From contig JBAYKT010000003.1 in NCBI GenBank assembly GCA_041664445.1, positions 6,282 to 70,281 of the forward strand: 64,000 nt of DNA. The letters are read 5' to 3'. Positions 1,108 to 45,371 of the stretch are shown here, in pieces. Source of the DNA: Patescibacteria group bacterium (lineage in GTDB: Bacteria; Patescibacteriota; Patescibacteriia; Patescibacteriales; UBA12465). Position 1 is the stretch's first letter. Each line of letters begins with the position of its first letter. The notes beneath the pieces are model-generated. The model was not told the DNA's origin, did not search any database, and saw only the letters and a list, made by a program, of their open reading frames with translations. Both the position numbers and the translations under genes were made by a program.

Positions 1108-2397
1108 ATGTCCAATATTTTTATCTACGATGAGTTCAGTCCCGAAGACGTCGCCATGATGCAGGCTCTTTACTCGCGCAGTCCGAAAAGCGTAACGGAG
1201 CATGTGGAAAAAGTAAAACAAAGCGGTTCCGGCAAATTTATGGCCACTTTCTATGTCGGCTACGGACACGCCAGTATTGCCGACTGCGGCAGTACTACTA
1301 TTTTTATTGAAGACATAAGTATAATTGGCGACAAGGCTATTCAAGATTGGCAACTTTATAGCGGACAAGAAACCAGCACTAGATATATAGATATGGGTAG
1401 TCGAGCAATTATTGACCCAATTGCAAATGCGGAATCTAAAGAAATTTTAGATAATTGGATGAAATTCTATAATGATAACCAGGAACGGATTCAAGCATAT
1501 CTCATGACCAAGTATCCGCGCCGCGAAGATGAAAATGAATTAGTTTATAGTAAAGCTATTAAAGCCCGCGGCTTTGATATTATGCGCGGATTTTTACCGG
1601 CTGGCATAACAACCCAATTAAGCTGGCATACTAATCTGCGCCAAGCTTGGGATCACTTAGCTCTGCTCCGCCACCATCCGCTAGCCGAGGTAAGAGATAG
1701 TGCCAATACAATTTTGCAAAAATTGAAAGAAAAATATGAACACAGCTTTTCTCACCAGCCAACTGAGGAACAGGAAACTTATCGAGAAGCTTGTGTTAAC
1801 CAATATGCTTATTTTAAACCCGACCAAGCAATTGATTTCTCCTGCTCTAGCGATATCAAACTTGAAAATTTAGCGGCTTATCAAGAAATTCTAGATAATC
1901 GACCACCAAAAACTGGTTTACCAATATTTTTAGGAGATTTAGGGCTCTGTAATTTTAAGTTTATTTTGGATTTTGGGTCTTTCCGCGACATCCAACGCCA
2001 TCGTAGTGGAATTTGCCGCATGCCCCTGCTTACCACTGATTTAGGCTTTGCTAACTGGTACTTAGAACAGTTGCCGGAAGATATGCGTGCCGAAGCAATT
2101 GAATTAATCGCCGTTCAAAAATCTAAAATTGATGTCCTGAGTTCAAGCCCGGAAATAAAACAATATTATATCGCCATGGGTTTTAATGTCGATTGTGCCT
2201 TCAGTTTTCCGCTACCCGCCGCTGTTTATGTAACCGAGTTAAGATCAAATAAAACCGTTCACCCCTCTTTACGCAGCGTCGCTCATAAAATGTATGCGGC
2301 TTTAAGCGAAAAGTTTCCCAATCTCAAACTTTACGCTGATTTGGATCTTGACGATTGGGATGTGCGCCGTGGTTTAGCAGATATTACCGCCAAATAA
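1108..2397 (+). CDS. thyX: Double-length (tandem) ThyX-like flavin-dependent thymidylate synthase
   Basis: 429 aa. The N-terminal half has YSRS, GHASIADC and ...SGQETSTRY. The C-terminal half has FRDIQRHRSG (the RHR of the ThyX motif). Both halves carry a ThyX-like LR....A..EVR helix. Sits between dCMP deaminase and tmk/dut. Confidence 0.6.
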   Translation: MSNIFIYDEFSPEDVAMMQALYSRSPKSVTEHVEKVKQSGSGKFMATFYVGYGHASIADCGSTTIFIEDISIIGDKAIQDWQLYSGQETSTRYIDMGSRAIIDPIANAESKEILDNWMKFYNDNQERIQAYLMTKYPRREDENELVYSKAIKARGFDIMRGFLPAGITTQLSWHTNLRQAWDHLALLRHHPLAEVRDSANTILQKLKEKYEHSFSHQPTEEQETYREACVNQYAYFKPDQAIDFSCSSDIKLENLAAYQEILDNRPPKTGLPIFLGDLGLCNFKFILDFGSFRDIQRHRSGICRMPLLTTDLGFANWYLEQLPEDMRAEAIELIAVQKSKIDVLSSSPEIKQYYIAMGFNVDCAFSFPLPAAVYVTELRSNKTVHPSLRSVAHKMYAALSEKFPNLKLYADLDLDDWDVRRGLADITAK

Positions 2398-2399
2398 TT

Positions 2400-2954
2400 A
2401 TGTCCAAGATTATCATTGGCCTAGTCGGCCCGGTTGCCAGCGGCAAAGACGTTAGCAAAAAATATATTGAAGAGCATCACGGTGCTTCCAGTTATAAATT
2501 TTCCACAGTTCTGCGAGATATTCTAAATCGCTTGTACTTACCAATTACCAGAGAGAACATGCAAGACTTATCTTTAGATTTGCGAAATCGTTTTGGCAGC
2601 GATATTCTCGCTAAAGTTATCACCGCGGATGCCAAAAGCGATAAAGGTGAAATTGTAATTGTTGATGGCGTTAGGCGCATGGATGATATTATCCATTTAA
2701 GCAATCTGCCGGAATTTAAATTAATCAGCGTGGAGGCAGATATCAACCTACGTTATGACAGAATGAAACTTCGCAATGAAAACGAAGGGGACGCGAATAA
2801 AACTTTCGCTGAGTTTGAAAATGATTGTCAAAAAGAAGCTGAACAAGAGATTCCAATTGTCGTTTCTCACGCCGCCTATCATCTGGATAACAGCGGAACT
2901 CTAGAAAATCTCTACGCCCAAATAGATAAGATAATCACGGAAATAAATAAATAA
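2400..2954 (+). CDS. P-loop nucleotide kinase-like protein (dNMP kinase / dephospho-CoA-kinase-like fold)
   Basis: Start at ATG 2400 (MSKIIIGLVGPVASGKDV, Walker A), 2 nt after the thyX stop. About 185 aa, typical of small NMP kinases. Substrate unknown. Confidence 0.5.
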   Translation: MSKIIIGLVGPVASGKDVSKKYIEEHHGASSYKFSTVLRDILNRLYLPITRENMQDLSLDLRNRFGSDILAKVITADAKSDKGEIVIVDGVRRMDDIIHLSNLPEFKLISVEADINLRYDRMKLRNENEGDANKTFAEFENDCQKEAEQEIPIVVSHAAYHLDNSGTLENLYAQIDKIITEINK

Positions 2955-2958
2955 TCAT

Positions 2959-4284
2959 ATGGAAAACACATCCGGAAAATTTATTGTCATTGACGGCACT
3001 GACGGCAGTGGCAAAACTACTCAACTTAATCTTTTAAAAGCCAAGCTGGAAGAAGAGGGCTACGCAGTGGCCGTCGCTGATTTCCCGCAATACAACACCA
3101 AATCAGCCGGCTTAGTAGAAGAATATTTATCCGGAAAATATGGTAATGCCGATGAGGTCGACCCCTATAAGGCTTCAATTTTTTATGCAGTTGATCGTTA
3201 TGACGCCAGCCAGAAAATCAAACAATGGTTAAACGAGGGTAAAATAGTACTGGCTAATCGCTACACCAGCGCCAGCTTAGGACATCAAGGATGTAAAATT
3301 GACAACCCTTTAGAAAGAAAGGTTTTCTTTAATTGGCTCTATGATTTAGAATATAAAATTTTTGAAATTCCTAAACCTGATTTGACCTTAATTTTGCAAG
3401 TAGAACCGGAGATTTCTTTTCAACTGGCACACGAAAGGGCGCGTGAAGACTGGATTGGAAAAACACATGACATTCATGAAAATGATTTTGAGCACTTAAA
3501 AAAAGCGGAACAAGTTTATGTGGAAATTGCCAATACTCTACCGGGATTTAGGCTAATAAAATGCACTCATAACAATCAAATATTGAGCCGCGAGTCTATT
3601 CATTTTTTAGTTTGGCTAGCAGCTAACCAATTAGTTGTTCATCAAGCTAAGGCCAAGCCCGGATTTGAATCAATCTCTAGTTTAATCGGCGCCAGCGAAC
3701 AAATTCTAAAAAACCGCGATTTACTTTTCAACAACAATAATAATCAAATAAATAAAATCCCGGAGGCACCAAAACCAAGCAACGACTTCCCTAATTTTAT
3801 CCCCTCAGTTCCAGAGCTTCCTGAAAATAAAGAATTATCTTTACCAAAACCAGAAAAAGTAATGCGCATTACCGTTGAACGAGTTTCCGCGGAAGCCAAG
3901 GTTCCTCAATTAGCTCACCCGGGTGATGCCGGATTTGATTTATATGCCGCCGATTACTATTCCATTACCGCCTACGGCCAAGCCTTAGTCGCTACCGGAA
4001 TCAAGATGGCAATTCCCGACGGTTATGTTGGTTTAGTGTGGGATAAAAGCGGCTTGGCCAATGAAGGAATCACCACTATGGGCGGCGTAATCGACTCTAA
4101 CTATCGCGGCGAAATAAAAGTAATTATTAAAAATTTAAGCGAGGATATTTTTAACATCGTCCCCGGACAAAAAATCGCTCAAATTCTTATTCAAGAAATT
4201 AAAACCCCGGTCATTGAAGACGGCGTAATCGCTAATGACACCAGCCGACAAGCAAATGGTTTCGGCTCTTCCGGAAAATTTTAA
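2959..4284 (+). CDS. tmk: Thymidylate kinase - dUTPase fusion protein
   Basis: N-terminus: FIVIDGTDGSGKTTQ P-loop and the DRY motif of Tmk. A low-complexity Asn/Pro linker follows (NNNNNQINKIPEAPKPSNDFPNFIPSVPELPENKELSLPKPEK). C-terminus has all five dUTPase motifs (AGFDLYA, PDG, GVIDSNYRGEIKVI, GQKIAQILI, RQANGFGSSG). One uninterrupted frame. Confidence 0.85.
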   Translation: MENTSGKFIVIDGTDGSGKTTQLNLLKAKLEEEGYAVAVADFPQYNTKSAGLVEEYLSGKYGNADEVDPYKASIFYAVDRYDASQKIKQWLNEGKIVLANRYTSASLGHQGCKIDNPLERKVFFNWLYDLEYKIFEIPKPDLTLILQVEPEISFQLAHERAREDWIGKTHDIHENDFEHLKKAEQVYVEIANTLPGFRLIKCTHNNQILSRESIHFLVWLAANQLVVHQAKAKPGFESISSLIGASEQILKNRDLLFNNNNNQINKIPEAPKPSNDFPNFIPSVPELPENKELSLPKPEKVMRITVERVSAEAKVPQLAHPGDAGFDLYAADYYSITAYGQALVATGIKMAIPDGYVGLVWDKSGLANEGITTMGGVIDSNYRGEIKVIIKNLSEDIFNIVPGQKIAQILIQEIKTPVIEDGVIANDTSRQANGFGSSGKF

Positions 4285-23238: not shown

Positions 23239-24102
23239 TTAATGTTCTTCTGCTGTCGTGTTAATTGTTAAATATGTTAAAATCAACATCGCAAAAATAA
23301 GCGCCTGAATCAGGCCGACCAAAACTTCCAAAAACATAAACGGAATCGGAACTCCATAAGCTAAAATAGCTGACATCGAAGCCAGCAATACTTCTCCCGC
23401 AAAGACATTACCGAATAAACGAAAAGAAAGACTGGCAACCTTAGCCAATTCCCCGATAATTTCAATTAAGCCGACAAAAGCTTTTATCGGATTAACTAAA
23501 ATAATCATCGGATCCTTCATAATTTTCTTCGGTATTTCTAAAAAGGCTTTAATGTTTATGAACTTATTTAAATATTTCCACCAGCCGATAGCCAGTACTC
23601 CCATGATATGACTCAAAACAACACCTAAAGTCGCGAGCGCCAAGGTAGTATTTAAATCAGCGGTGCCGCCGCGCAAATAAGGAATAAATATTTTTTCATC
23701 ACCGTGAGCAGCAATTTGACCGATGGAACCGACTCCTGGGAGTAACCCCATCCAATTGTTAATAAGAATAAAAAAGAAAAAGGCTAAGACCACGGGCGCA
23801 AATTTTAAAGATTTTTTGCGGTCGCCAGTGACACCATCAAAAATTCCCAAAAATCCCTCAATAATAATTTCCATCGCATTCTGCAGACCGGTCGGGACTT
23901 TCTTTAAATTACGTCTGATAGTAATTGCTAAAATAGCAATAATAATTAAAGCAAGAGTTGAAGTCGCTAAAGCATTGGTAACCGGAAAACTACCGATATG
24001 AGCTATCGGCTCGGCAAATAAAGTATTTTCATGAATTACTTCATCAGTATTTTCGTGAACGGTACTCTCGGTATTTTCTTGGATAATATTCTCTGCTCCC
24101 AT
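23239..24102 (-). CDS. atpB: Fo ATP synthase a subunit
   Basis: SLSFRLFGNVFAGEVLL (essential Arg helix). Polytopic, 287 aa. Confidence 0.93.
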   Translation of the reverse strand: MGAENIIQENTESTVHENTDEVIHENTLFAEPIAHIGSFPVTNALATSTLALIIIAILAITIRRNLKKVPTGLQNAMEIIIEGFLGIFDGVTGDRKKSLKFAPVVLAFFFFILINNWMGLLPGVGSIGQIAAHGDEKIFIPYLRGGTADLNTTLALATLGVVLSHIMGVLAIGWWKYLNKFINIKAFLEIPKKIMKDPMIILVNPIKAFVGLIEIIGELAKVASLSFRLFGNVFAGEVLLASMSAILAYGVPIPFMFLEVLVGLIQALIFAMLILTYLTINTTAEEH

Positions 24103-24117
24103 TTTTTTGGAATTAAC

Positions 24118-24369
24118 TTATTTTTTTTCTTCTTTATTTTTAGCGTATTCGTCTTCAATTTTCTTAAATTCTTTCATGGCATTTTTAACCAAACCGTACA
24201 TAGAAACCACAAAACTTAAAGCCACGGTAGCCAGGAAAAGCCAGGGCTCAGTGTTGAATCTGATATCCAGCCATTTTCCTAAAAATACGCCGATAAGCAC
24301 CGGAAAAGCAATCCAACCAGAAATTCTAGCCATGATTTTCAGGGCCAAGCTCCAAGTGTCATTTTTCAT
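24118..24369 (-). CDS. AtpZ/AtpI-like small membrane protein
   Basis: 83 aa, two TM segments. First gene of the atp operon, directly downstream of the promoter. Confidence 0.5.
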   Translation of the reverse strand: MKNDTWSLALKIMARISGWIAFPVLIGVFLGKWLDIRFNTEPWLFLATVALSFVVSMYGLVKNAMKEFKKIEDEYAKNKEEKK

Positions 24370-24396
24370 ATTTTTAGCTTATTTTGAGCCATCTTC

Positions 24397-37284: not shown

Positions 37285-39318
37285 TTAGGAGCGCGGCAAT
37301 AAGCCGCGTTTTTTTAAATCTTCAACTTGCGGTAGATAGTATAAAGCATCAACATCGTGGCGATTTATTTTCAAAGCTTGCTGCCAATTAATTTCCGCCT
37401 GTAAATAATCTCCCAGATTCCAATAAACCATCGCTAAATCGCTATAGGCGCTAGGAGTTTTATTTTCAATTTTAAGACCGCGCTGAAAATAGTCGATGGC
37501 CTTTAAGAGCGTGTTACGATCGTCGGACGCGGAGTATAAATAAGCCAGCGAAAAAATTGCTCTTTGATTTTTGGGGTTAGCTAGCAATATTTGACGATAT
37601 ATTTCTTCTGCCAAATCCGGCATCCCATAGCTTTGGGCTAAGGCCGCCAAATAAAAGCGCTCGCGGACATTAGAATCCCCCGCTAATTCCCGCAAACGGC
37701 TCCTAAAGCCCCACTCATTTAAAGCATACTTATCTAAAATAGCCGAATCGGTCACTGACTTGCGTGCTAAAATTACATATTGTCTATCAAAATATACTAA
37801 CTGCCAATCGCTATCCGCTAAAATTCGTTTTAAAAAAGTTTTACCCCAAGGTGTTTGATCGGTATGAGAAAAATAAACGGTTTTAAAATTATATTGCGCC
37901 ATAGCCTGCTGCCAAGGCAGCACTTCGTTTTGCATCGGCAAATAAGTATCAGTAAAAAACTTAACACTGTAAGCTTCCGGACGATTGTCCACAAAAACTT
38001 TTTCTTGATTATCAAGTCCAAAAATAAGCGCGCTGCCATTATCATAATTATTAAATAAGGGGCCTCCGAGACCGCTCGCGCGGAAGAACTCAAAAGAATC
38101 TGTCTGACCCGTGCTCAGACCAATGCCGAAACTGCCTTTCAAAAAATTATTACGTTCCTGATAATCGCTAATCAAAAACAACATCACCCCCAAAATTAAT
38201 AATCCGGGCAATATCGGCAAATATTTTTTTATTTTCTCGGAAATTTCACGCTTGTCAGGAATTAATCGCGACCATAAAAATGCCAGTGGCCTCTTCAAAG
38301 CGGAGCTAATTAAAACTAAGGCCACCAAGCCGAATAAAGCTAGGTTACGAGAAGCAAACAAGGCCAGCGTGGAGATAAAAATTCCTAAAAATATTTCAAA
38401 CCAGCGTGGTTTTTTATAAAAAAACCAAGTAGCGATGAGCGCGAGAACTAAAACGACCAATAATAATTTAAAGATACTGAAATTATAATTAAATATCAGA
38501 TTTTGCAGATAAAAGATGCTTTTGTTTTCCGCAATTTGATAGCCGTAATTCTTTAAAATACTAAAAGGATAAAAAAAGCCACGCCAAGTATTGGGCGTTA
38601 GAAAACAAACTGCAACTAGTGACAATAAGAGCCAAAAGTCTTTTTTAATTTTGAAGAAAGCACTTCTTAATTTAGCGCCTAGACTATTATCGCTGCCATC
38701 AAAAGCCTGCCATAAAAACTTTTCCGCCAGCTTAAAGCCTATGAGCGCGAGTCCCAAGAAAAAATAAATATGAATATTGGGCCACAGAATAAATAAGGGC
38801 ACCAAAATAAATAGTTTGCACTTGGTTGATAATTTATCCGTTTCCCAAATAAGCCAAGTTAATGCCAAAAATAAATAGCTAAAAATTTCTGGCCTAATCT
38901 CCACGCGTTCACTAAAAAGCAGAATCACCGGCAAGGATATAATTGCCGGCAAATAAAAACCGGCGCGTTTATAAGCCAGTTTAAAGAAACTTAAAAAAAC
39001 CGCGAGCGCCAACAGAATGTTAAAAATGGAAAGCAGATTAAAGCCGCCTACTAAATAGACGACATAGGAAATAACCCCACCTAACCAGTGGTGGTTAACA
39101 AAACGCTGGTCGGGCTCGGTGTAAGAATAAAAATTTTTAAATAAAAGATCGGGCTGACTAAAAACCAAACGGCCGTTTTCTAAATGTCGGCCCAAATCAA
39201 TCGCCGAAAACTCTATTTTCTGAGCAAAAATAATAACGACTAGCAAACTTAAACCCAGCAGGATAAGTATCCGCCAAAGCTTTTGGGGTTCACGTAAATT
39301 CTGAATAATTCTTAACAT
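37285..39318 (-). CDS. Polytopic membrane protein with C-terminal TPR domain
   Basis: More than 10 TM segments over about 400 aa, then a soluble region ending in TPR-like repeats (AYSDLAMVYWNLGDYLQAEINWQQALKINRHDVDALYYL). Confidence 0.5.
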   Translation of the reverse strand: MLRIIQNLREPQKLWRILILLGLSLLVVIIFAQKIEFSAIDLGRHLENGRLVFSQPDLLFKNFYSYTEPDQRFVNHHWLGGVISYVVYLVGGFNLLSIFNILLALAVFLSFFKLAYKRAGFYLPAIISLPVILLFSERVEIRPEIFSYLFLALTWLIWETDKLSTKCKLFILVPLFILWPNIHIYFFLGLALIGFKLAEKFLWQAFDGSDNSLGAKLRSAFFKIKKDFWLLLSLVAVCFLTPNTWRGFFYPFSILKNYGYQIAENKSIFYLQNLIFNYNFSIFKLLLVVLVLALIATWFFYKKPRWFEIFLGIFISTLALFASRNLALFGLVALVLISSALKRPLAFLWSRLIPDKREISEKIKKYLPILPGLLILGVMLFLISDYQERNNFLKGSFGIGLSTGQTDSFEFFRASGLGGPLFNNYDNGSALIFGLDNQEKVFVDNRPEAYSVKFFTDTYLPMQNEVLPWQQAMAQYNFKTVYFSHTDQTPWGKTFLKRILADSDWQLVYFDRQYVILARKSVTDSAILDKYALNEWGFRSRLRELAGDSNVRERFYLAALAQSYGMPDLAEEIYRQILLANPKNQRAIFSLAYLYSASDDRNTLLKAIDYFQRGLKIENKTPSAYSDLAMVYWNLGDYLQAEINWQQALKINRHDVDALYYLPQVEDLKKRGLLPRS

Positions 39319-39404
39319 AAGGGCAAAAAGAAACTTAATCTTATTTTACCATATAATTTCCCATAAAATAAGGTGTTTTGTCAAGACAAATTTATTATAA
39401 ACAA

Positions 39405-39431
39405 AACAAAAACGGGCCGATTGGTCCGTTA
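39405..39431 (-). terminator. Rho-independent terminator of the lipoprotein gene
   Basis: Plus strand aaaaa-ACGGGCC-gatt-GGTCCGT, 7 bp including one G-U pair. On the minus strand the stem is followed by TTTTTGTTTTG. Confidence 0.6.
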
Positions 39432-39459
39432 TTGATTATTCTTGTTACAGGTGAATAAT

Positions 39460-39906
39460 TTACCTTTTTTCTTCTTCAAGAAGCACATTAATTCCCGGCT
39501 TGAGGCACTTGAGCGTTTCTTTAGAAATCTCACCAAATGTGGATTCACTCAAATACCGCGATTTCAGTTTTCCGTCTTTCATAAAATACACAAAAGCAGT
39601 TTTGCCTTTAATGATGTAGGCTAAAGCGGCATGTTTGATAATGCCATCTTTCATAATGCAAATGCCGTCAGAGATTGATACGGGAAGACAATTTTTCAAA
39701 CTCATTTCAAAATAGGTTAGCTCCTTCTGCGGCAACATGTCGCTAATTGAATTAGCATCCAAGACATCCTCATTGGTAAACACCGACAATTCTCCTGCAT
39801 TAAATAAATACACCTTATCAGCTGTTCTCATGTTTGATTTACTGCAAGAAGAAGAAAAAAGAGTTGAAAAAAATACAACAATTAATTGAGCGATTTTTGT
39901 TTTCAT
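39460..39906 (-). CDS. Orphan secreted/lipoprotein-like protein
   Basis: Signal peptide MKTKIAQLIVVFFSTLFSSSC with a Cys at the likely cleavage site; no recognisable domain. Has its own promoter, operator-like palindrome and terminator. Confidence 0.5.
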   Translation of the reverse strand: MKTKIAQLIVVFFSTLFSSSCSKSNMRTADKVYLFNAGELSVFTNEDVLDANSISDMLPQKELTYFEMSLKNCLPVSISDGICIMKDGIIKHAALAYIIKGKTAFVYFMKDGKLKSRYLSESTFGEISKETLKCLKPGINVLLEEEKR

Positions 39907-39953
39907 TTTTTGTGGTTTTTTATAAATATTTAATTTGTAATGTTCAAGATAAA

Positions 39954-40004
39954 AATGCTATTTTAGCATTAAGAAATTATATCATATTATTATGCTTTTG
40001 TCAA
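39954..40004 (-). promoter_or_regulatory. Consensus sigma70 promoter plus palindromic operator for the lipoprotein gene
   Basis: Minus strand TTGACA (39999-40004)-N17-TATAAT (39976-39981). Perfect 7-3-7 palindrome AATGCTA-ttt-TAGCATT at 39954-39970, over the predicted +1. Confidence 0.65.
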
Positions 40005-40012
40005 TAATATAA

Positions 40013-40037
40013 CAAAAAATAGGCTAATTTCAGCCTA
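40013..40037 (-). terminator. Rho-independent terminator of trpB
   Basis: TAGGCT-gaaatt-AGCCTA followed by TTTTTT on the minus strand. Short stem. Confidence 0.5.
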
Positions 40038-40073
40038 TTTATTGCTTCAATTAAACCTTAGTTTGCCTAATCA

Positions 40074-41273
40074 TTAAATTTGCATATTCTCCACCACAAA
40101 ATCAACATCCTTATCCCCTCGACCAGAAAGATTAACGATAATTGTCTTGTCTGAGTCTAGCTTAGCGGCTAATTTAAGGGCGTAAGCGACAGCATGAGCA
40201 CTTTCTAGGGCCGGAATTATGCCTTCAGTTCGAGAAAGCTCTAAAAAGGCAGCTAAGGCCTCATGGTCATTAATCGTCTCATAGACAACCCGTCCTTTAT
40301 CTTTTAAGTCGGCATGCACCGGACCGACACCTGGGTAATCAAGCCCAGAAGCAATGGAGTGCACCGGCAAAGGCGCTCCCTGTTCATCTTGCAATAAGTA
40401 AGTGAACATTCCGTGGATGTTTCCCGGTTTACCCAAAGTTAAGGTTGCGGCATGTTCGCCTAAGCCAAAACCGCGACCGGCCGGCTCCACGCCAATCATC
40501 TTAACTTCCTCATCTCCTAAAAATTCGTGAAATAAACCAATAGCATTAGAACCGCCGCCCACACAAGCCACTAAATAATCCGGCAAGCGATTTTCCTTCA
40601 CCATTATCTGTTCTTTTGCCTCTCGGCCGACCACTGACTGAAAATCGCGCACCATCATCGGAAAAGGATGTGGTCCGACTACCGAGCCAATGCCAAAAAA
40701 AGTGTCTTGCGGATTTTTGACAAAGGCTTCAAAGGCACTATCCACTGCATCCTTCAAACAGCGGCCGCCAGCTTTAACAGTCACCACTTTGGCTCCCAAT
40801 ATTTTCATCCGAGCAACATTCGGCGCTTGTTTTAAAATATCGATCTCTCCCATATGGATTTCGCATTCCAGCCCTACTAGAGCGGCGGCGGTCGCTAAAG
40901 CAACACCGTGTTGACCCGCGCCCGTTTCTGCTAACAATTTCTTCTTACCTAATCTTTTAGCAAGCAAAGCTTCTCCCAGAGTGTGATTTATTTTATGCGC
41001 TCCGGTATGGTTTAAATCTTCACGCTTCAAATAAATCTTGGCGCCGCCGATTTTAACCGTTAAATTCTTTGCTAAGTATAAAGGCGAGGGGCGGCCAACA
41101 TAATCCCTAAGCAAAGCTTGATATTCCTCTTGAAACTTTGGGTCTTCTTTGGCTAACGAATATTCTTTTTCAACCGCTTCAAAAATTGAGACCAACTCCG
41201 GCGGAATTTGACGGCCACCATAAACGCCGAAATACCCTAATTCATTTGGTAATGATTTTAAATTATTTTTCAT
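40074..41273 (-). CDS. trpB: Tryptophan synthase beta chain (stand-alone)
   Basis: [29 protein letters not shown] (PLP lysine), GGGSNAIG. 399 aa. No other trp gene in the window. Confidence 0.92.
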
Positions 41274-41402
41274 ATTATTTTTTTAGTTATTTTTTAATTA
41301 ATCTTTTTTAACAAATTTAACAAACAAAAAAGCGCCGCCAACTAAAAGTGCATTTATGTAAAAAATAATATTTTAACTGCTGATAATTCATATTAAACAA
41401 AT

Positions 41403-41439
41403 AAAAAACCGCCCAAGATCTAAAGAGATATCGGGCGGC
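41403..41439 (-). terminator. Strong rho-independent terminator (end of suf transcript and/or trpB attenuator)
   Basis: Minus strand CCGCCCGAUAUCU-cuuu-AGAUCUUGGGCGG, about 12 bp with one mismatch, followed by UUUUUU. Confidence 0.8.
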
Positions 41440-41465
41440 TGACTTATAATATATAACAAAATTGC

Positions 41466-41528
41466 CTACCCTCTATCTGGGGCGGCTTGCCAGGAAATAT
41501 TCAAATTTCTTAACTTATTAATTCTCAT
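41466..41528 (-). CDS. Candidate 20-aa leader peptide with a Trp codon
   Basis: ATG 41528, MRINKLRNLNISWQAAPDRG, TAG at 41466-41468. The UGG codon is at 41490-41492. The stop codon lies inside a segment that can pair with the 5' arm of the terminator. Hypothetical. Confidence 0.25.
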   Translation of the reverse strand: MRINKLRNLNISWQAAPDRG

Positions 41529-41534
41529 ACTTCT

Positions 41535-41563
41535 ATACTAAATCAATTAGCAAATATTTACAA
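41535..41563 (-). promoter_or_regulatory. Promoter-like element immediately upstream of the leader ORF
   Basis: Minus strand TTGTAA-N17-TAGTAT. The -10 ends 6 nt before the leader ATG, which implies a leaderless or near-leaderless transcript. Confidence 0.3.
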
Positions 41564-41571
41564 GTTGACGA

Positions 41572-41946
41572 TTATTTAGACCTTGCCGAGTCGCTAAGCG
41601 CTTTTTGAACGGCGCGCAAACCCAACATCGCGCAATTATATCGGCGGGCACTGATTTCTACGCCAAAAATATTTTTAATATCTTCAAAATTATAAACTAA
41701 AATTTGTTTCTTAGTTTTACCAATTAATTCTTCACTTAAAATAGAGATTCCGGCTTGCGAAATTGCACAGCCCTGGCCGGTGAAACTTAAGGCCTTTAAT
41801 TTATTGCCGGCAAACTTTAAAAAAACGGTAATGTCATCGCCACAAGTCGCATTTAATTCTTGCTGTTTAAAATCAGCCCCCGCCAAGGCGCCAAAATTAC
41901 GCGGATGCTTATAATGATCAATAATATTTTGCGCGTAGATATCCAT
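41572..41946 (-). CDS. sufU: Fe-S cluster scaffold SufU/IscU-like
   Basis: HYKHPRNFG, ATCGDD, GQGCAIS, RYNCAMLG: the three conserved Cys of the SufU/IscU fold. Confidence 0.8.
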   Translation of the reverse strand: MDIYAQNIIDHYKHPRNFGALAGADFKQQELNATCGDDITVFLKFAGNKLKALSFTGQGCAISQAGISILSEELIGKTKKQILVYNFEDIKNIFGVEISARRYNCAMLGLRAVQKALSDSARSK

Positions 41947-41947
41947 A

Positions 41948-43153
41948 TTATTTAAAGGCCCTGATTAATTCCTGCAAACGGGAAATAAAATAATCAATCT
42001 CGCCCTTGGTATTATAAAAACTAAGACTGGCGCGCAAAGTTGCTGGTGCGCCAAGATAATCATGCAAAGGTTGAGCGCAATGATGGCCGGCGCGTAAAAT
42101 AATCCCAGCCTGCCCTAAAATATCCGCCGCGTCATGTGGATGGACGCCCTTAATTGTAAGCGCAAAAATTGGTAATTTAGCTTTAGCCGTTCCTAAAATT
42201 TTTACCGCTGTTAGCTTTTTGATTTTCTGTAAAAAATAAGTGGTTAATTGTTGTTCTTGGATTTCAATATTATGATGGCCGACGCCCTCCAAATATTTTA
42301 TTGCCGCTCCTAAACCAATTACACCGGCAATATTCGGCGTTCCCGCTTCAAATTTATAAGGGAGCTCATTCACACCGAAAGAATCAGTATCCACAAAACT
42401 AATCATATCGCCGCCGCCCATAAATGGCGGCATTGCTAATAATAATTCTTGGCGTCCGTATAAGACACCGATACCTGTAGGCCCGCCAAGCTTATGACCG
42501 GAAAATACTAAAAAATCGCAACCCAGCCGTTTAACATCAATCTTTAAATGGGCCACGCTCTGGGCAGCATCTATCAAAGTAACAATGCCTTTTTGTTTTG
42601 CCAGCTTAATCAACTGAGATGCAGGATTAATTATACCCAAGACATTAGAGACTTGGGAAATGGCCAATAGTTTAACGCGACGCTTATTTAATAATTTTTT
42701 AGCCGCTACCAAATCCCAAGAACCGTCAGCCTTAAGCGGAATATATTCTAACTTAATACCAATCTTTTCTTGGAGTTGCAGCCACGGCACAATATTGGCA
42801 TGATGCTCGGCGATGCTTAAAACCACAATATCGCCAGCCTGTAAATTAGCTTCTCCCCAAGAGCGGGCGACTAAATTAATACCGGCGGTCGCTCCCGAAG
42901 TAAAAATAATTTCCTCTTTTTGGGCGCCAATAAAATCCGCGACCAAACTTCGAGCAACTTCATATTTTTTAGTCGCTGCGTCGGCTAGCGGATTTAAGCC
43001 ACGATGAACGTTAGCGTTATCATTCTTATAAAAATTACTGATAGCCTCAATAACTGAGCGTGATTTTTGTGCAGTTGAGGCATTATCAAAATAAACCAAA
43101 GACTGGTCCTTAATTTTTTTATTTAAAATGGGGAAATCATTTCTCCTAATCAT
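41948..43153 (-). CDS. sufS: Cysteine desulfurase SufS
   Basis: SGHKLGGPTGIGVLYG (PLP Lys) and RAGHHCAQPL (catalytic Cys). 401 aa. Confidence 0.88.
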   Translation of the reverse strand: MIRRNDFPILNKKIKDQSLVYFDNASTAQKSRSVIEAISNFYKNDNANVHRGLNPLADAATKKYEVARSLVADFIGAQKEEIIFTSGATAGINLVARSWGEANLQAGDIVVLSIAEHHANIVPWLQLQEKIGIKLEYIPLKADGSWDLVAAKKLLNKRRVKLLAISQVSNVLGIINPASQLIKLAKQKGIVTLIDAAQSVAHLKIDVKRLGCDFLVFSGHKLGGPTGIGVLYGRQELLLAMPPFMGGGDMISFVDTDSFGVNELPYKFEAGTPNIAGVIGLGAAIKYLEGVGHHNIEIQEQQLTTYFLQKIKKLTAVKILGTAKAKLPIFALTIKGVHPHDAADILGQAGIILRAGHHCAQPLHDYLGAPATLRASLSFYNTKGEIDYFISRLQELIRAFK

Positions 43154-43155
43154 AA

Positions 43156-43926
43156 TTATTTAGTGCGGTTCTTTTTCTTAATTTCCGCGGCAATCTCTTT
43201 TTTAAACTTGGCCGGCAATCCTTCCGTAAAACGAGCGGTTAATGAATTAATAATAAGCTCGCGTGCTTGCTTTTCGGTAAGTCCGCGGCTTTGCAAATAA
43301 AAAATATCTTCTGGTGATAATTGAAAAGTGCTAGCCCCATGGCCGGCCTTAACTTCATTAGCATCAATTTTCAAGCCCGGGAGCATCACCCCCTTCGCCG
43401 TCCGGCTCATTAGATAAAGTTTCATATCAATGCGCGAATCCGTCTGTTGCGCCAGCGGGTCAATTATAATATTGGAATAATATTTAGCTATCGCTTCCGC
43501 GTTTAAAAGGCCGATAACCGAAAAGCGTCCGCGTGTTCCCGGTTTCGTAAAAATATAATCATCGCTGGCGACAAAAGCTTCTTTACCGGAAAAATAAAAT
43601 AAGACTCGACTCTCAAAGTCCGCGCCTTTCCCTAAGCGGTTAACAAATTTAGAATCGTTATCACTGGAATTAAAATAAGCGCGATAAGAAACGACCTGCG
43701 ACTTATCACCAATAATCAATTCTCGATTTTGCGACGCGGGTAAAGCATTTATCGAGGCCAAAAAAATATATTTAATCTGGCAATTGCGCCCGATAATAAT
43801 TTGAATATTTTTTTCCGCCTTCTTAGCAGTACTGCTCTTTACGGGCGACTTATCAATAATAAAAGCTTCCGTACCATCAGGGATTATAATTTTTTTCTGG
43901 CGGTTAGTAATAATTATTTCTTTCAT
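43156..43926 (-). CDS. sufD: Fe-S assembly protein SufD (short)
   Basis: The C-terminal beta-helix region VKAGHGASTFQLSPEDIFYLQSRGL parallels SufB/D. Position between sufB and sufS. Confidence 0.7.
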   Translation of the reverse strand: MKEIIITNRQKKIIIPDGTEAFIIDKSPVKSSTAKKAEKNIQIIIGRNCQIKYIFLASINALPASQNRELIIGDKSQVVSYRAYFNSSDNDSKFVNRLGKGADFESRVLFYFSGKEAFVASDDYIFTKPGTRGRFSVIGLLNAEAIAKYYSNIIIDPLAQQTDSRIDMKLYLMSRTAKGVMLPGLKIDANEVKAGHGASTFQLSPEDIFYLQSRGLTEKQARELIINSLTARFTEGLPAKFKKEIAAEIKKKNRTK

Positions 43927-43931
43927 AATAT

Positions 43932-45371
43932 TTAACCGACGCTATTTTCCATTTCTAGCTCCACCATCCGATTCATTTCTACTGCATATTCTAGAGGTAA
44001 TTCTTTAACGATGGGATTTATAAAACCGTTAACAATCATGGCGCTCGCCTCGCTCTCGCTTAAGCCGCGACTGCGTAAATAAAAAATATCGTCATCATTC
44101 AATTTGCCGGCGGTCGCTTCATGCGCCAATACTGCCGTTGGATTATTAATTTTAATCATCGGAATGGTATCGGAAGCCGATCGCGGATCTAAAATTAAAG
44201 CATCGCATTTAATATTGGAAACAGCATCTTCGGCGGCGGCGCTAATTTCCACTAAACCGCGATAAACGGCGCGTCCCCCGTCCTTGCTAATACTCTTCAT
44301 CACAATATTGGAGGTGGTTTTTGGCGCTAAATGGATTACCTTCGCGCCCGTGTCTTGAATCTGGCCATGATTGGCAAAAGCGACGCCTAAATGATCGGCA
44401 CTCGCGCCCTCCCCCAACAAGACGGAACAAGGATAAAGCATCGTCACATTACTACCAAAATTACCGCCCACCCATTCCATATGCGCGCCCTCTTGAACTA
44501 AGGCTCTTTTAGTATTTAAATTGTAAGCATCTTTACTCCAGCTTTCCACGCTGCTATAGCGGAAGCGCGCTTTCTTGGCAACATAAACCTCCACACAACC
44601 GGCATGTAAAGAATCAACGCCATAACGCGGGGCGCTACAGCCTTCAATATAATGCGCTTGCGCTTCTTCTTCCACGATTATTAAAGTATGTTCAAACTGC
44701 CCCATACCCTTGGCATTCATCCGAAAATAAGCCTGCAAAGGCAAATCAACTTTTACACCCTTAGGAATATATAAAAAAGTACCGCCGCTCCAAACCGCGC
44801 CATGAAGCGCCGCAAATTTATGGAGAGTTGGTGGGACCGCGCGCATAAAATGTTTTTTAACTAATTCTTCATGCGTCTGCAAAGCGACATCTAAGTCTTC
44901 AAAAACTACTCCCTGGCTGCGAAATTGCTCTTTTAAACTATGATAAATAACGGTTGATTCGTATTGTGCACCGACACCGGCCAGGACTTCTTGTTCGGCC
45001 TGCGGAATGCCAAGTTTATCAAAAGTTTCCTTAATATCTGCTGGCACATCATCCCAAGTTTGCGATTGCTTATCGGTCGCTCGAGCATAATAAGTTATCT
45101 TTCCCAAATCTAAACGCGACAAATCAGGTCCCCAAGTCGGCAAAGGCATTTCCTGATATAGCTTCAAAGACGCTAAACGTTTTTGCAGCATCCACTCCGG
45201 TTCCTGTTTTTCTTGAGAAATAAAACGCACTAGCTTTTCATCCAAACCAACCTTGGTGCCGGACATGTATTCAGATTGATTATAAGAATCCCACAACGAA
45301 TCATGAGAGCTAGCCGTCGCTTTCTTTTTAGGAAGATTTTTCTTTTTTAGCGCTTCTCTCGGCATTCTCAT
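43932..45371 (-). CDS. sufB: Fe-S assembly protein SufB
   Basis: Highly conserved SufB sequence (FEHTLIIVEE, HEATAGKLNDDDIFYLRSRGL). ATGA overlap with sufC. Confidence 0.92.
   Translation of the reverse strand: MRMPREALKKKNLPKKKATASSHDSLWDSYNQSEYMSGTKVGLDEKLVRFISQEKQEPEWMLQKRLASLKLYQEMPLPTWGPDLSRLDLGKITYYARATDKQSQTWDDVPADIKETFDKLGIPQAEQEVLAGVGAQYESTVIYHSLKEQFRSQGVVFEDLDVALQTHEELVKKHFMRAVPPTLHKFAALHGAVWSGGTFLYIPKGVKVDLPLQAYFRMNAKGMGQFEHTLIIVEEEAQAHYIEGCSAPRYGVDSLHAGCVEVYVAKKARFRYSSVESWSKDAYNLNTKRALVQEGAHMEWVGGNFGSNVTMLYPCSVLLGEGASADHLGVAFANHGQIQDTGAKVIHLAPKTTSNIVMKSISKDGGRAVYRGLVEISAAAEDAVSNIKCDALILDPRSASDTIPMIKINNPTAVLAHEATAGKLNDDDIFYLRSRGLSESEASAMIVNGFINPIVKELPLEYAVEMNRMVELEMENSVG

Follow-up and report, generated by a model that had tools for sequence, protein, structure and literature searches.

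Does the hairpin that lies between sufU and a stand-alone trpB gene of a Patescibacteria group bacterium simply end the transcription of the suf genes, or is it part of a device that controls trpB? The question concerns a short leader within a 64,000-nucleotide (nt) stretch of contig JBAYKT010000003.1; this whole 64-kb stretch is hereafter called the window, its numbering is used throughout, and all features of the leader are read on its minus strand. Patescibacteria are uncultured and ultra-small, and they are thought to depend on other cells for most of their building blocks. To our knowledge, almost nothing is known about gene regulation in this group, also referred to as the Candidate Phyla Radiation (CPR), and a literature search for attenuators, or for the control of trpB, in Patescibacteria/CPR gave no relevant result. 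In one size fraction of groundwater Patescibacteria, trpA and trpB are present in 15% and 18% of the metagenome-assembled genomes, respectively (PMC8672522). An earlier, sequence-only reading of the locus had proposed a ribosome-dependent attenuator, and the analysis described here supports it: the element is likely to be a leader-peptide attenuator that senses charged tRNA-Trp and controls the stand-alone trpB. The proposal was exposed to refutation in silico at three points and was refuted at none of them.

From its AUG through the terminator, the leader of the window measures about 125 nt. The sufU stop, the promoter, the open reading frame (ORF), its UGG codon, the stop-containing segment, the terminator and trpB are all found where the first reading had placed them. 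In the following list, uORF denotes an ORF upstream of trpB.

41574-41572, minus strand: stop codon of sufU
41535-41563, minus strand: sigma-70-like promoter as a whole
41563-41558, minus strand: -35 element TTGTAA, followed by a 17-nt spacer
41540-41535, minus strand: -10 element TAGTAT, ending 6 nt ahead of the ATG of uORF1
41466-41528, minus strand: uORF1, 20 codons with the ATG at 41528, for the putative leader peptide MRINKLRNLNISWQAAPDRG (then stop)
41492-41490, minus strand: UGG, codon 13 and the one Trp codon of uORF1, the putative regulatory codon
41479-41486, minus strand: segment 1, GCCGCCCC, at +6 to +13 from the U of UGG
41464-41478, minus strand: segment 2, AGAUAGAGGGUAGGC, which holds the UAG of uORF1 and is a partner of segment 1 or of segment 3 (antiterminator)
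41468-41466, minus strand: stop codon UAG of uORF1, within segment 2
41455-41463, minus strand: U-rich tract AAUUUUGUU, directly past the 1:2 hairpin
41403-41439, minus strand: predicted intrinsic terminator as a whole, made up of segments 3 and 4 and U6
41439-41426, minus strand: segment 3, GCCGCCCGAUAUCU, followed by the loop CUUU
41421-41409, minus strand: segment 4, AGAUCUUGGGCGG, followed by U6 at 41408-41403
41317-41391, minus strand: uORF2, MNYQQLKYYFLHKCTFSWRRFFVC (then stop), between the terminator and trpB
40074-41273, minus strand: trpB, 399 amino acids (aa), with the ATG at 41273

The terminator hairpin was found by RNAfold and contains a single U.C mismatch, because of which it was missed by a simple consensus terminator scan.

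The arrangement suggests the following mode of action. Transcription would start at, or a few nt from, the AUG of the 20-codon leader ORF, as indicated by the promoter geometry. When tryptophan is plentiful, a ribosome would reach the UAG in segment 2 and cover segments 1 and 2; segment 3 could then pair with segment 4 only, and RNA polymerase would terminate at U6 (41408-41403). With no translation at all, the 1:2 hairpin would form and the 3:4 hairpin would again cause termination. When charged tRNA-Trp is scarce, the ribosome would stall with the UGG (41492-41490) in its A site and its leading edge over segment 1. Segment 2, freed by the stall, would pair with segment 3 before segment 4 is synthesized, so that no terminator would form and the polymerase would read on into uORF2 and trpB. 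The TrpB product could then make tryptophan from indole and serine. The 1:2 hairpin and the U-rich tract probably constitute a pause that synchronizes ribosome and polymerase, as in E. coli trpL.

Both alternative structures are present when the RNA is folded from the AUG on, with the bases covered by a ribosome blocked (the footprint size was taken from general knowledge). The default fold of the window leader, 1:2 hairpin plus 3:4 terminator, has an energy of -39.4 kcal/mol (z = -3.6), and none of 200 shuffles is as stable; the terminator alone accounts for -16.5 to -16.7 kcal/mol. When the mask extends to +11 or +13 from the UGG and the transcript stops short of segment 4, the 2:3 helix has the lowest energy (-17.5 to -17.8 kcal/mol); the value of -17.8 is reached by none of 300 dinucleotide shuffles of the segment-2/spacer region. 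With the mask at the stop codon of uORF1, the terminator is the only structure formed. The balance between 2:3 and 3:4 was the point on which the sequence-only reading asked for computed energies; at -17.5 to -17.8 versus -16.5 kcal/mol the 2:3 pairing is competitive, and it is furthermore backed by covariation. The geometry of the switch is also appropriate: segment 1 begins 6 nt past the U of UGG and would therefore be masked by a ribosome that holds this codon in its A site.

The comparative set consists of 12 distinct leaders (the window, L081, L119, L120, L121, L122, L124, L127, L130, L132, L133 and L001), which represent about 8 Patescibacteria lineages with TrpB proteins that are 71-93% identical. 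In all 12, a stand-alone trpB is directly preceded by the same unit: a promoter, an ORF of 18-20 codons with its stop in segment 2, a U-rich tract and a terminator. In close relatives with the same synteny (L081-83, L119, L121) the whole intergenic region between sufU and trpB is kept, and in more distant lineages a leader ORF with Trp, followed by a terminator, lies 90-320 nt upstream of trpB. The upstream gene is sufU in the window, L081, L119 and L121. It is a P-type ATPase gene in L120, where similarity starts exactly at the -35 element CTTGTAAATATT and continues to trpB, and a divergent histidine kinase gene in L122. M23 peptidase genes are found at this position in L124 (divergent) and L130 (same strand), a methyltransferase gene in L127, a divergent GTPase gene in L133 and a 169-aa ORF on the same strand in L001; the gene closest to the unit on its upstream side in L132 is a divergent ORF of 119 aa without a Pfam match. 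Relatives that possess sufU (34-71% identical) with no trpB after it have nothing similar downstream of sufU. Because the unit accompanies trpB whatever lies upstream, divergent genes included, the leader element is to be assigned to trpB and is not merely a suf terminator. In one further locus (L135) no recognizable element is seen in the short, uninformative stretch of 116 nt between the contig end and trpB.

The ORF itself is conserved in the manner expected from the first reading, with ATG, frame, UGG and a stop in segment 2 all kept. The peptides of the other 11 leaders are:

L081, uORF1 peptide: MRVSNIKNLNISWPAAPDRG
L119, uORF1 peptide: MSLNKLRNLNISWQAARD
L120, uORF1 peptide: MRVNNIEILNISWQAAPDRG
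L121, uORF1 peptide: MRINKLINLNISWQAAPDRG
L122, uORF1 peptide: MKENEVKNVNNSWRASLDIG
L124, uORF1 peptide: MVSNKFQTASQNWRTAYNIG
L127, uORF1 peptide: MNRINRYNQSWWASHDIG
L130, uORF1 peptide: MKLQALQNNSWWTAQNIE
L132, uORF1 peptide: MIKLLQQLNWWTAPALGQ
L133, uORF1 peptide: MTLNKFQNTNKSWWTTYNIG
L001, uORF1 peptide: MKFIKTNWQWSYTHSGESSF

ATG, UGG and stop form invariant or aligned columns across the set, and the first UGG is located 8 codons ahead of the stop in 9 of the 12 leaders; no conservation is seen in the N-terminal half of the peptide. Every leader has an open frame 0, and each of the other frames has stops in 11 of them. The chance of an open frame is 0.15-0.42 per sequence, which gives a product of the order of 1e-5 over about 8 independent lineages. 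All 12 ORFs contain a Trp codon, as a tandem UGG-UGG in four lineages and as W-x-W in one. In the window lineage, the single UGG falls on the first of the two tandem codons when the leaders are aligned. The reservation that there is only one Trp codon is therefore true of the window lineage, but elsewhere the codons are tandem and the single UGG is a variant of a WW family. In L119 a 1-nt deletion in uORF1 (2300-2310) brings in a UAG two codons earlier, still within segment 2 (MSLNKLRNLNISWQAARD, then stop).

The promoter-like hexamers that had been proposed are likewise conserved, with L120 similarity beginning at the -35 as mentioned above. In 9 of the 12 leaders, the distance from the end of the best -35/-10 pair to the ATG is exactly 6 nt; it is 7 nt in L122 and 9 nt in L127. 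On the assumption of canonical promoter spacing, the uORF1 transcript is predicted to be leaderless, with +1 on or next to the A of the AUG. A loose match to a Shine-Dalgarno (SD) site precedes just 5 of 56 genes in the window, and the 56 ORF starts are preceded by A/T-rich, AAAUAAU-like contexts; this scarcity and these contexts point to SD-independent or leaderless initiation in the window lineage. As the genome hardly uses SD sites, the lack of one before uORF1 is no argument against its translation.

Compensatory changes, for which the first reading had recommended a comparison of related intergenic regions, occur in all three helices. In the alignment of the 12 leaders (alignment A3), the 2:3 helix is paired in 83.0% of cells (31-45% when slid); both bases have changed in 6 of its pairs, a number reached by none of 500 shuffles. 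For the combination of 1:2 and 3:4 the figure is 84.9% versus 32-49% when slid, with a covariation score of 0.324 that is again reached in 0 of 500 shuffles. Taken separately, the 3:4 helix shows 84% pairing and has 5 pairs in which both bases differ, and the 1:2 helix is 77-100% paired across the 12 sequences, also with compensatory changes. A clear example is the GGG/CCC of the window, which is replaced throughout the four segments of L130 by GAG/CUC. One portion of the 2:3 helix (GAUAU/AAUAU with AUAUC/AAUAUU) sits in the loop of the 1:2 hairpin and shows G-C to A-U exchange there, so that 1:2 alone cannot explain its conservation. The terminator is present in all relatives and segment 2 is complementary to its 5' arm throughout, while the sequences themselves vary by lineage, from GCCGCCCGAUAUCU in the window to CCUGCUUUAUGUCGU in L122, CUACCCGAUAUAU in L124 and GACUGCUCAAUAUU in L130 (5' parts given). 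Past segment 2, a U-rich run with invariant or near-invariant T columns occurs in all 12 leaders and is a candidate for a hairpin-dependent pause site or a weak first terminator.

Folding under the ribosome masks gives the predicted outcome, 2:3 helix or terminator, in all 12 leaders (that of L132 was read by hand). The energy of 2:3 is reached by 0-17 of 300 shuffles across the leaders, L119 excepted. A count of the terminator 5'-arm bases that are paired upstream was tried as a test and rejected, as this arm finds partners in shuffles too and only energy discriminates. Altogether, the leader has the hallmarks of an attenuator of this type: a leader ORF with a Trp codon, a predicted Rho-independent terminator, an exclusive 2:3 pairing and the appropriate masking geometry.

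Between the terminator and trpB, the A/T-rich sequence of about 130 nt that had been taken for a plain spacer contains a second conserved mini-ORF, uORF2. Homologues are found in all other leaders except L122, with peptides such as MKYYFYNRATYYWRCKS, MTKYFFYNRCTEYWRK, MHYYFYNKSTQPWR, MYYYFHNRSTQPWRLGLAR and MLNHYRFYNRATEPWRLNAGLILLLNN, each followed by a stop. Across the Patescibacteria lineages they have the motif Y-[YF]-F-x-[NH]-[KR]-x-T-x-x-W-R, in which the Trp is invariant in 10 of the 11 distinct leaders examined. The entropy at third codon positions is 1.06 bits versus 0.74 and 0.63 at positions 1 and 2, and of the codons that differ, 60 of 193 (31%) are synonymous in frame, compared with 18 of 185 and 25 of 180 (10-14%) when the alternative frames are read; Thr uses all four ACN codons and Arg all four CGN codons. 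The third-position variation and the synonymous changes therefore place the conservation of uORF2 at the amino acid level. No conserved RNA structure was detected around uORF2 or over the trpB start, where some lineages have weak A-U pairing. In L001 the homologue MNHFIHKNHCTEFWHNN (1914-2012; start of the peptide) is stop-free and continues in frame into trpB (2013-3200) as a 434-aa ORF, which may be due to chance or may be a real fusion; among 120 homologues there are no in-frame fusions of uORF2 and TrpB, and only L001 reads through.

uORF2 might serve as a further Trp-codon sensor, as a regulatory nascent peptide or as a means of loading ribosomes. It could be imagined that the locus is a two-tier device, in which the leaderless Trp-codon attenuator of uORF1 is combined with an arrest-type nascent peptide, encoded by uORF2, that sets the translation of trpB or the access of Rho. 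This is a tentative idea, to which we would give perhaps one chance against several. In one version, the uORF2 peptide may make the ribosome hypersensitive to a shortage of Trp-tRNA at its single UGG; in another, it may sense a small molecule, free tryptophan or indole, in the exit tunnel. If such a device existed, it would represent a new family of arrest peptides, and indole salvage in ultra-small bacteria would have its regulatory logic worked out for the first time.

Several points weigh against the attenuator. Its support is wholly in silico. The comparative sample is small, with 12 sequences from about 8 lineages and an effective number of 4.3, and the shuffle controls ignore phylogeny. 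Only one UGG is present in the window lineage and in two further lineages, which is expected to give a shallower response than tandem codons. The 2:3 helix contains a 2x2 internal loop and a bulge in the window group, and in L119 it is weakened by the 1-nt deletion to -11.5 kcal/mol, an energy attained by 71 of 300 shuffles. When free, the full-length RNA switches between 1:2 plus 3:4 and a nested 1:4 plus 2:3; as both of these folds place a hairpin before the U-run, read-through is predicted only with segment 1 masked. Furthermore, we know of no demonstration of leaderless initiation in Patescibacteria.

How well would other explanations account for the same observations? The simplest is that suggested by the neighbourhood: a plain intrinsic terminator, or a tandem pair, of the suf operon, with the promoter of trpB further downstream and the mini-ORF and 2:3 pairing a coincidence. 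sufU does end 9 nt upstream of the -35 with no other terminator in sight, and the 1:2 hairpin with its U-rich tract resembles a weak first terminator. The sequence-only reading had itself cautioned that the terminator could simply end suf. Part of this caution stands, because sufU stops so close to the -35 without a terminator of its own that the leader hairpin probably ends suf transcripts here as well. However, the whole unit precedes trpB beside unrelated or divergently transcribed genes and is absent after sufU in relatives without trpB, while all 12 leaders retain the ORF, its UGG and the position of the stop, and the 2:3 helix covaries. A terminator that serves suf and nothing else hence deserves scarcely any credence. 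A more serious alternative is that uORF1 and the hairpins are a constitutive pause or terminator module, and that the real sensor is an RNA-binding factor or uORF2, the latter through stalling at its Trp codon or as a ligand-sensing nascent peptide that acts on Rho or on trpB translation. The conservation of the uORF2 peptide, with its near-invariant Trp, is stronger than that of uORF1, and the uORF1 of the window lineage has only one UGG. But L122 has uORF1 and the attenuator without uORF2, with about 35 nt from terminator to trpB, and uORF1 thus suffices in at least one lineage. A constitutive module also leaves unexplained the conserved spacing between UGG and segment 1, the stop in segment 2 and the tandem WW of four lineages, and no conserved RNA structure was found around uORF2. 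We regard this module as improbable, although less so than the other rivals.

A different Trp-responsive class, either a T-box riboswitch responding to uncharged tRNA-Trp or a protein-binding attenuator of the TRAP type, would share a terminator/antiterminator pair with the present leader, since such a pair is common to all these classes, and both T-box and TRAP control trp genes in other AT-rich bacteria. T-box leaders are about 200-300 nt long and combine a specifier loop with a conserved T-box sequence for pairing with the acceptor end of the tRNA; TRAP requires 9-11 (G/U)AG triplets that are 2-3 nt apart and overlap the antiterminator. The window leader measures about 125 nt. No Rfam family, Trp_leader (RF00513) and T-box (RF00230) included, matches at E <= 10 in window positions 39000-44000, and none at E <= 1 in seven Patescibacteria-type loci. 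No motif resembling the T-box core GGUGGNACCNCG is present in the leader, and the longest chain of (G/U)AG triplets with 2-3-nt spacers in the 290-nt leader is 2. These classes have next to no chance of being correct. Finally, the terminated RNA of about 125 nt, the 20-aa peptide or both could act mainly in trans, with cis control of trpB being secondary. The rnTrpL/peTrpL of S. meliloti is a precedent (PMC6614838, PMC7298713), and the attenuated RNA would be abundant under plentiful tryptophan. Nevertheless, the N-terminal half of uORF1 is variable, the element always lies immediately upstream of trpB and no target is indicated. A predominantly trans-acting role is very unlikely and would, moreover, be compatible with a leader-peptide attenuator rather than an alternative to it.

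The charged tRNA-Trp attenuator, which we favour, can be compared with known systems. Leader-peptide attenuation was long reported for Proteobacteria and Actinobacteria only (PMC2965389). With E. coli and enterobacterial trpL, the unit shares a short ORF with Trp codon(s) just upstream of segment 1, the 1:2 and 3:4 versus 2:3 pairings, a stop placed so that the ribosome blocks segment 2, an intrinsic terminator with a U-run and a likely pause site after 1:2. In contrast to E. coli trpL, there is no detectable similarity at the sequence or profile level, the window unit would control a lone trpB instead of trpEDCBA, the window lineage has one Trp codon, and the stop is 8 codons after the UGG (3 in trpL). 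Furthermore, the Patescibacteria unit is predicted to be leaderless in a host that is nearly without SD sites, and has a second uORF past the terminator.

The trp attenuator RNA of S. meliloti, rnTrpL, has been described as leaderless (PMC6614838) and also has its leader ORF at the 5' end of the transcript. Leucobacter, whose TrpB proteins (67-68% identical to that of the window) are among the closest relatives outside Patescibacteria, has the trpB leaders MHTANQWWTA (L019) and MHIVTQWWIA (L014), each followed by a stop and located about 160-170 nt upstream of trpB. In L019 the -10 TAGGAT ends 6 nt before the ATG, and Leucobacter has W-W-T-A with segment 1 in the Thr-Ala codons, which can be compared with the WWTA of L130 and L132. 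Unlike the Patescibacteria leaders, those of S. meliloti and Actinobacteria have 10-14 codons with two or three consecutive Trp and the stop right after, belong to GC-rich genomes and lack uORF2. Two leaders of Bacteroidota, an SD-poor phylum, are found directly upstream of trpB: MKTCMTQNNFWWNFSIINIEKG (then stop) in Ancylomarina (L029, 2833-2955) and MKTNNHIYISWRWQ (start of the peptide) in Bacteroidales (L031, 2780-2929). They are similar in that WW or W-x-W occurs in an ORF of some 20-30 codons that is followed by a terminator; they have no uORF2, and L029 is weakly matched by Rfam Trp_leader, unlike the Patescibacteria leaders. This match of 30.5 bits, below the gathering threshold of 41 bits, is the only score obtained with RF00513. 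In mycobacteria, leaderless poly-Cys short ORFs act as cysteine-responsive attenuators (bioRxiv 10.1101/834739); here too the stalling of ribosomes on the cognate codons of a leaderless short ORF governs the genes that follow, but amino acid, phylum and pathway are different and the likeness is at the level of description.

A covariance model built from the 12 leaders (R1) was run on 96 sources, and its convincing matches were the window and L001 only. The similarity of the Bacteroidota leaders to this model is marginal (27.1 bits, E = 0.03, for L029; 20.9 bits, E = 0.6, for L031), and the model gives no match on the Leucobacter leaders. Three other matches were rejected: window 24281-24392 (E = 0.8), inside a coding ORF of about 85 aa; L001 5128-5240, a plain terminator after another gene; and L034 4081-4249, at the 3' end of trpB. 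This kind of attenuator is thus widespread but patchy, and the Patescibacteria family would be a new member with the textbook trpL design.

What is new is the phylum, the orphan trpB as the target, the predicted leaderless and SD-free setting and the second conserved uORF; the mechanism itself is classical. Leader-peptide attenuation would be extended to a new major lineage, and a conserved attenuator would imply that these cells use the coupling of transcription to translation to monitor the charging of tRNA-Trp. Only under starvation would the final reaction of tryptophan synthesis be switched on, presumably for the salvage of indole from a neighbour or host. It would also be implied that leaderless, SD-free initiation can drive such a switch. 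With its length of about 125 nt, the leader may be a compact part suited to cell-free systems. The deletion allele of L119 offers a natural variant that bears on the attenuator model, and uORF2, conserved as a peptide, is a concrete candidate for a regulatory nascent peptide.

The genes around the leader complete the picture. Upstream in the window is an Rrf2-sufCBDSU cluster. The downstream gene encodes a true TrpB (TIGR00263, 559 bits versus a cut-off of 392; Pfam PALP), and a tblastn search with a TrpA (E <= 10) detected no trpA-like sequence in the 64 kb. A second terminator-like structure was found by the terminator scan:

40017-40040, minus strand: hairpin and U-run directly past the trpB stop

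It would make promoter, leader and trpB a monocistronic unit. An exact-sequence look-up of the TrpB and SufU of the window gave no record. The closest TrpB proteins, 89-93% identical, carry the source labels Candidatus Falkowbacteria and, in one case, 'Saccharimonadales', and a large group at 73-81% identity is labelled Falkowbacteria, Magasanikbacteria, Parcubacteria or 'Patescibacteria group'; these labels place the window in Patescibacteria/CPR. In a search of genome contigs with the window TrpB, the best match was 71% identical, without shared synteny; L001 and the leaders of Leucobacter and Bacteroidota came from this search.

Three further observations concern other leaders and genes. 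In L084/L087 (3366-3530) and in L090 (752-915), all without trpB, sufU is followed by a conserved, GC-rich and structured stretch of about 160 nt that contains AAAACCCGCGGAUUUUAUAGCUUUUUAAAAAGCUGGAGGUGGCCUCGGGGCUCGAUU and, further on, GCAAGCUUUUUUU and lies upstream of an ORF beginning MEDKKQEEQSEFARLFEKD; it could be another leader or attenuator. Right past the trpB terminator of the window, a promoter that matches the consensus perfectly (TTGACA and TATAAT, 17 nt apart, and a TG upstream) occurs at 39976-40004 on the minus strand. It precedes an ORF of 148 aa (39460-39906), for which neither Pfam nor NCBIfam gives a match. A membrane protein is probably encoded at 24120-24367 on the minus strand, by an unlisted ORF of about 85 aa that begins MKNDTWSLALKIMARISGWIAFPVLIGVFLGKWLD and lies upstream of a 287-aa gene (23239-24102).

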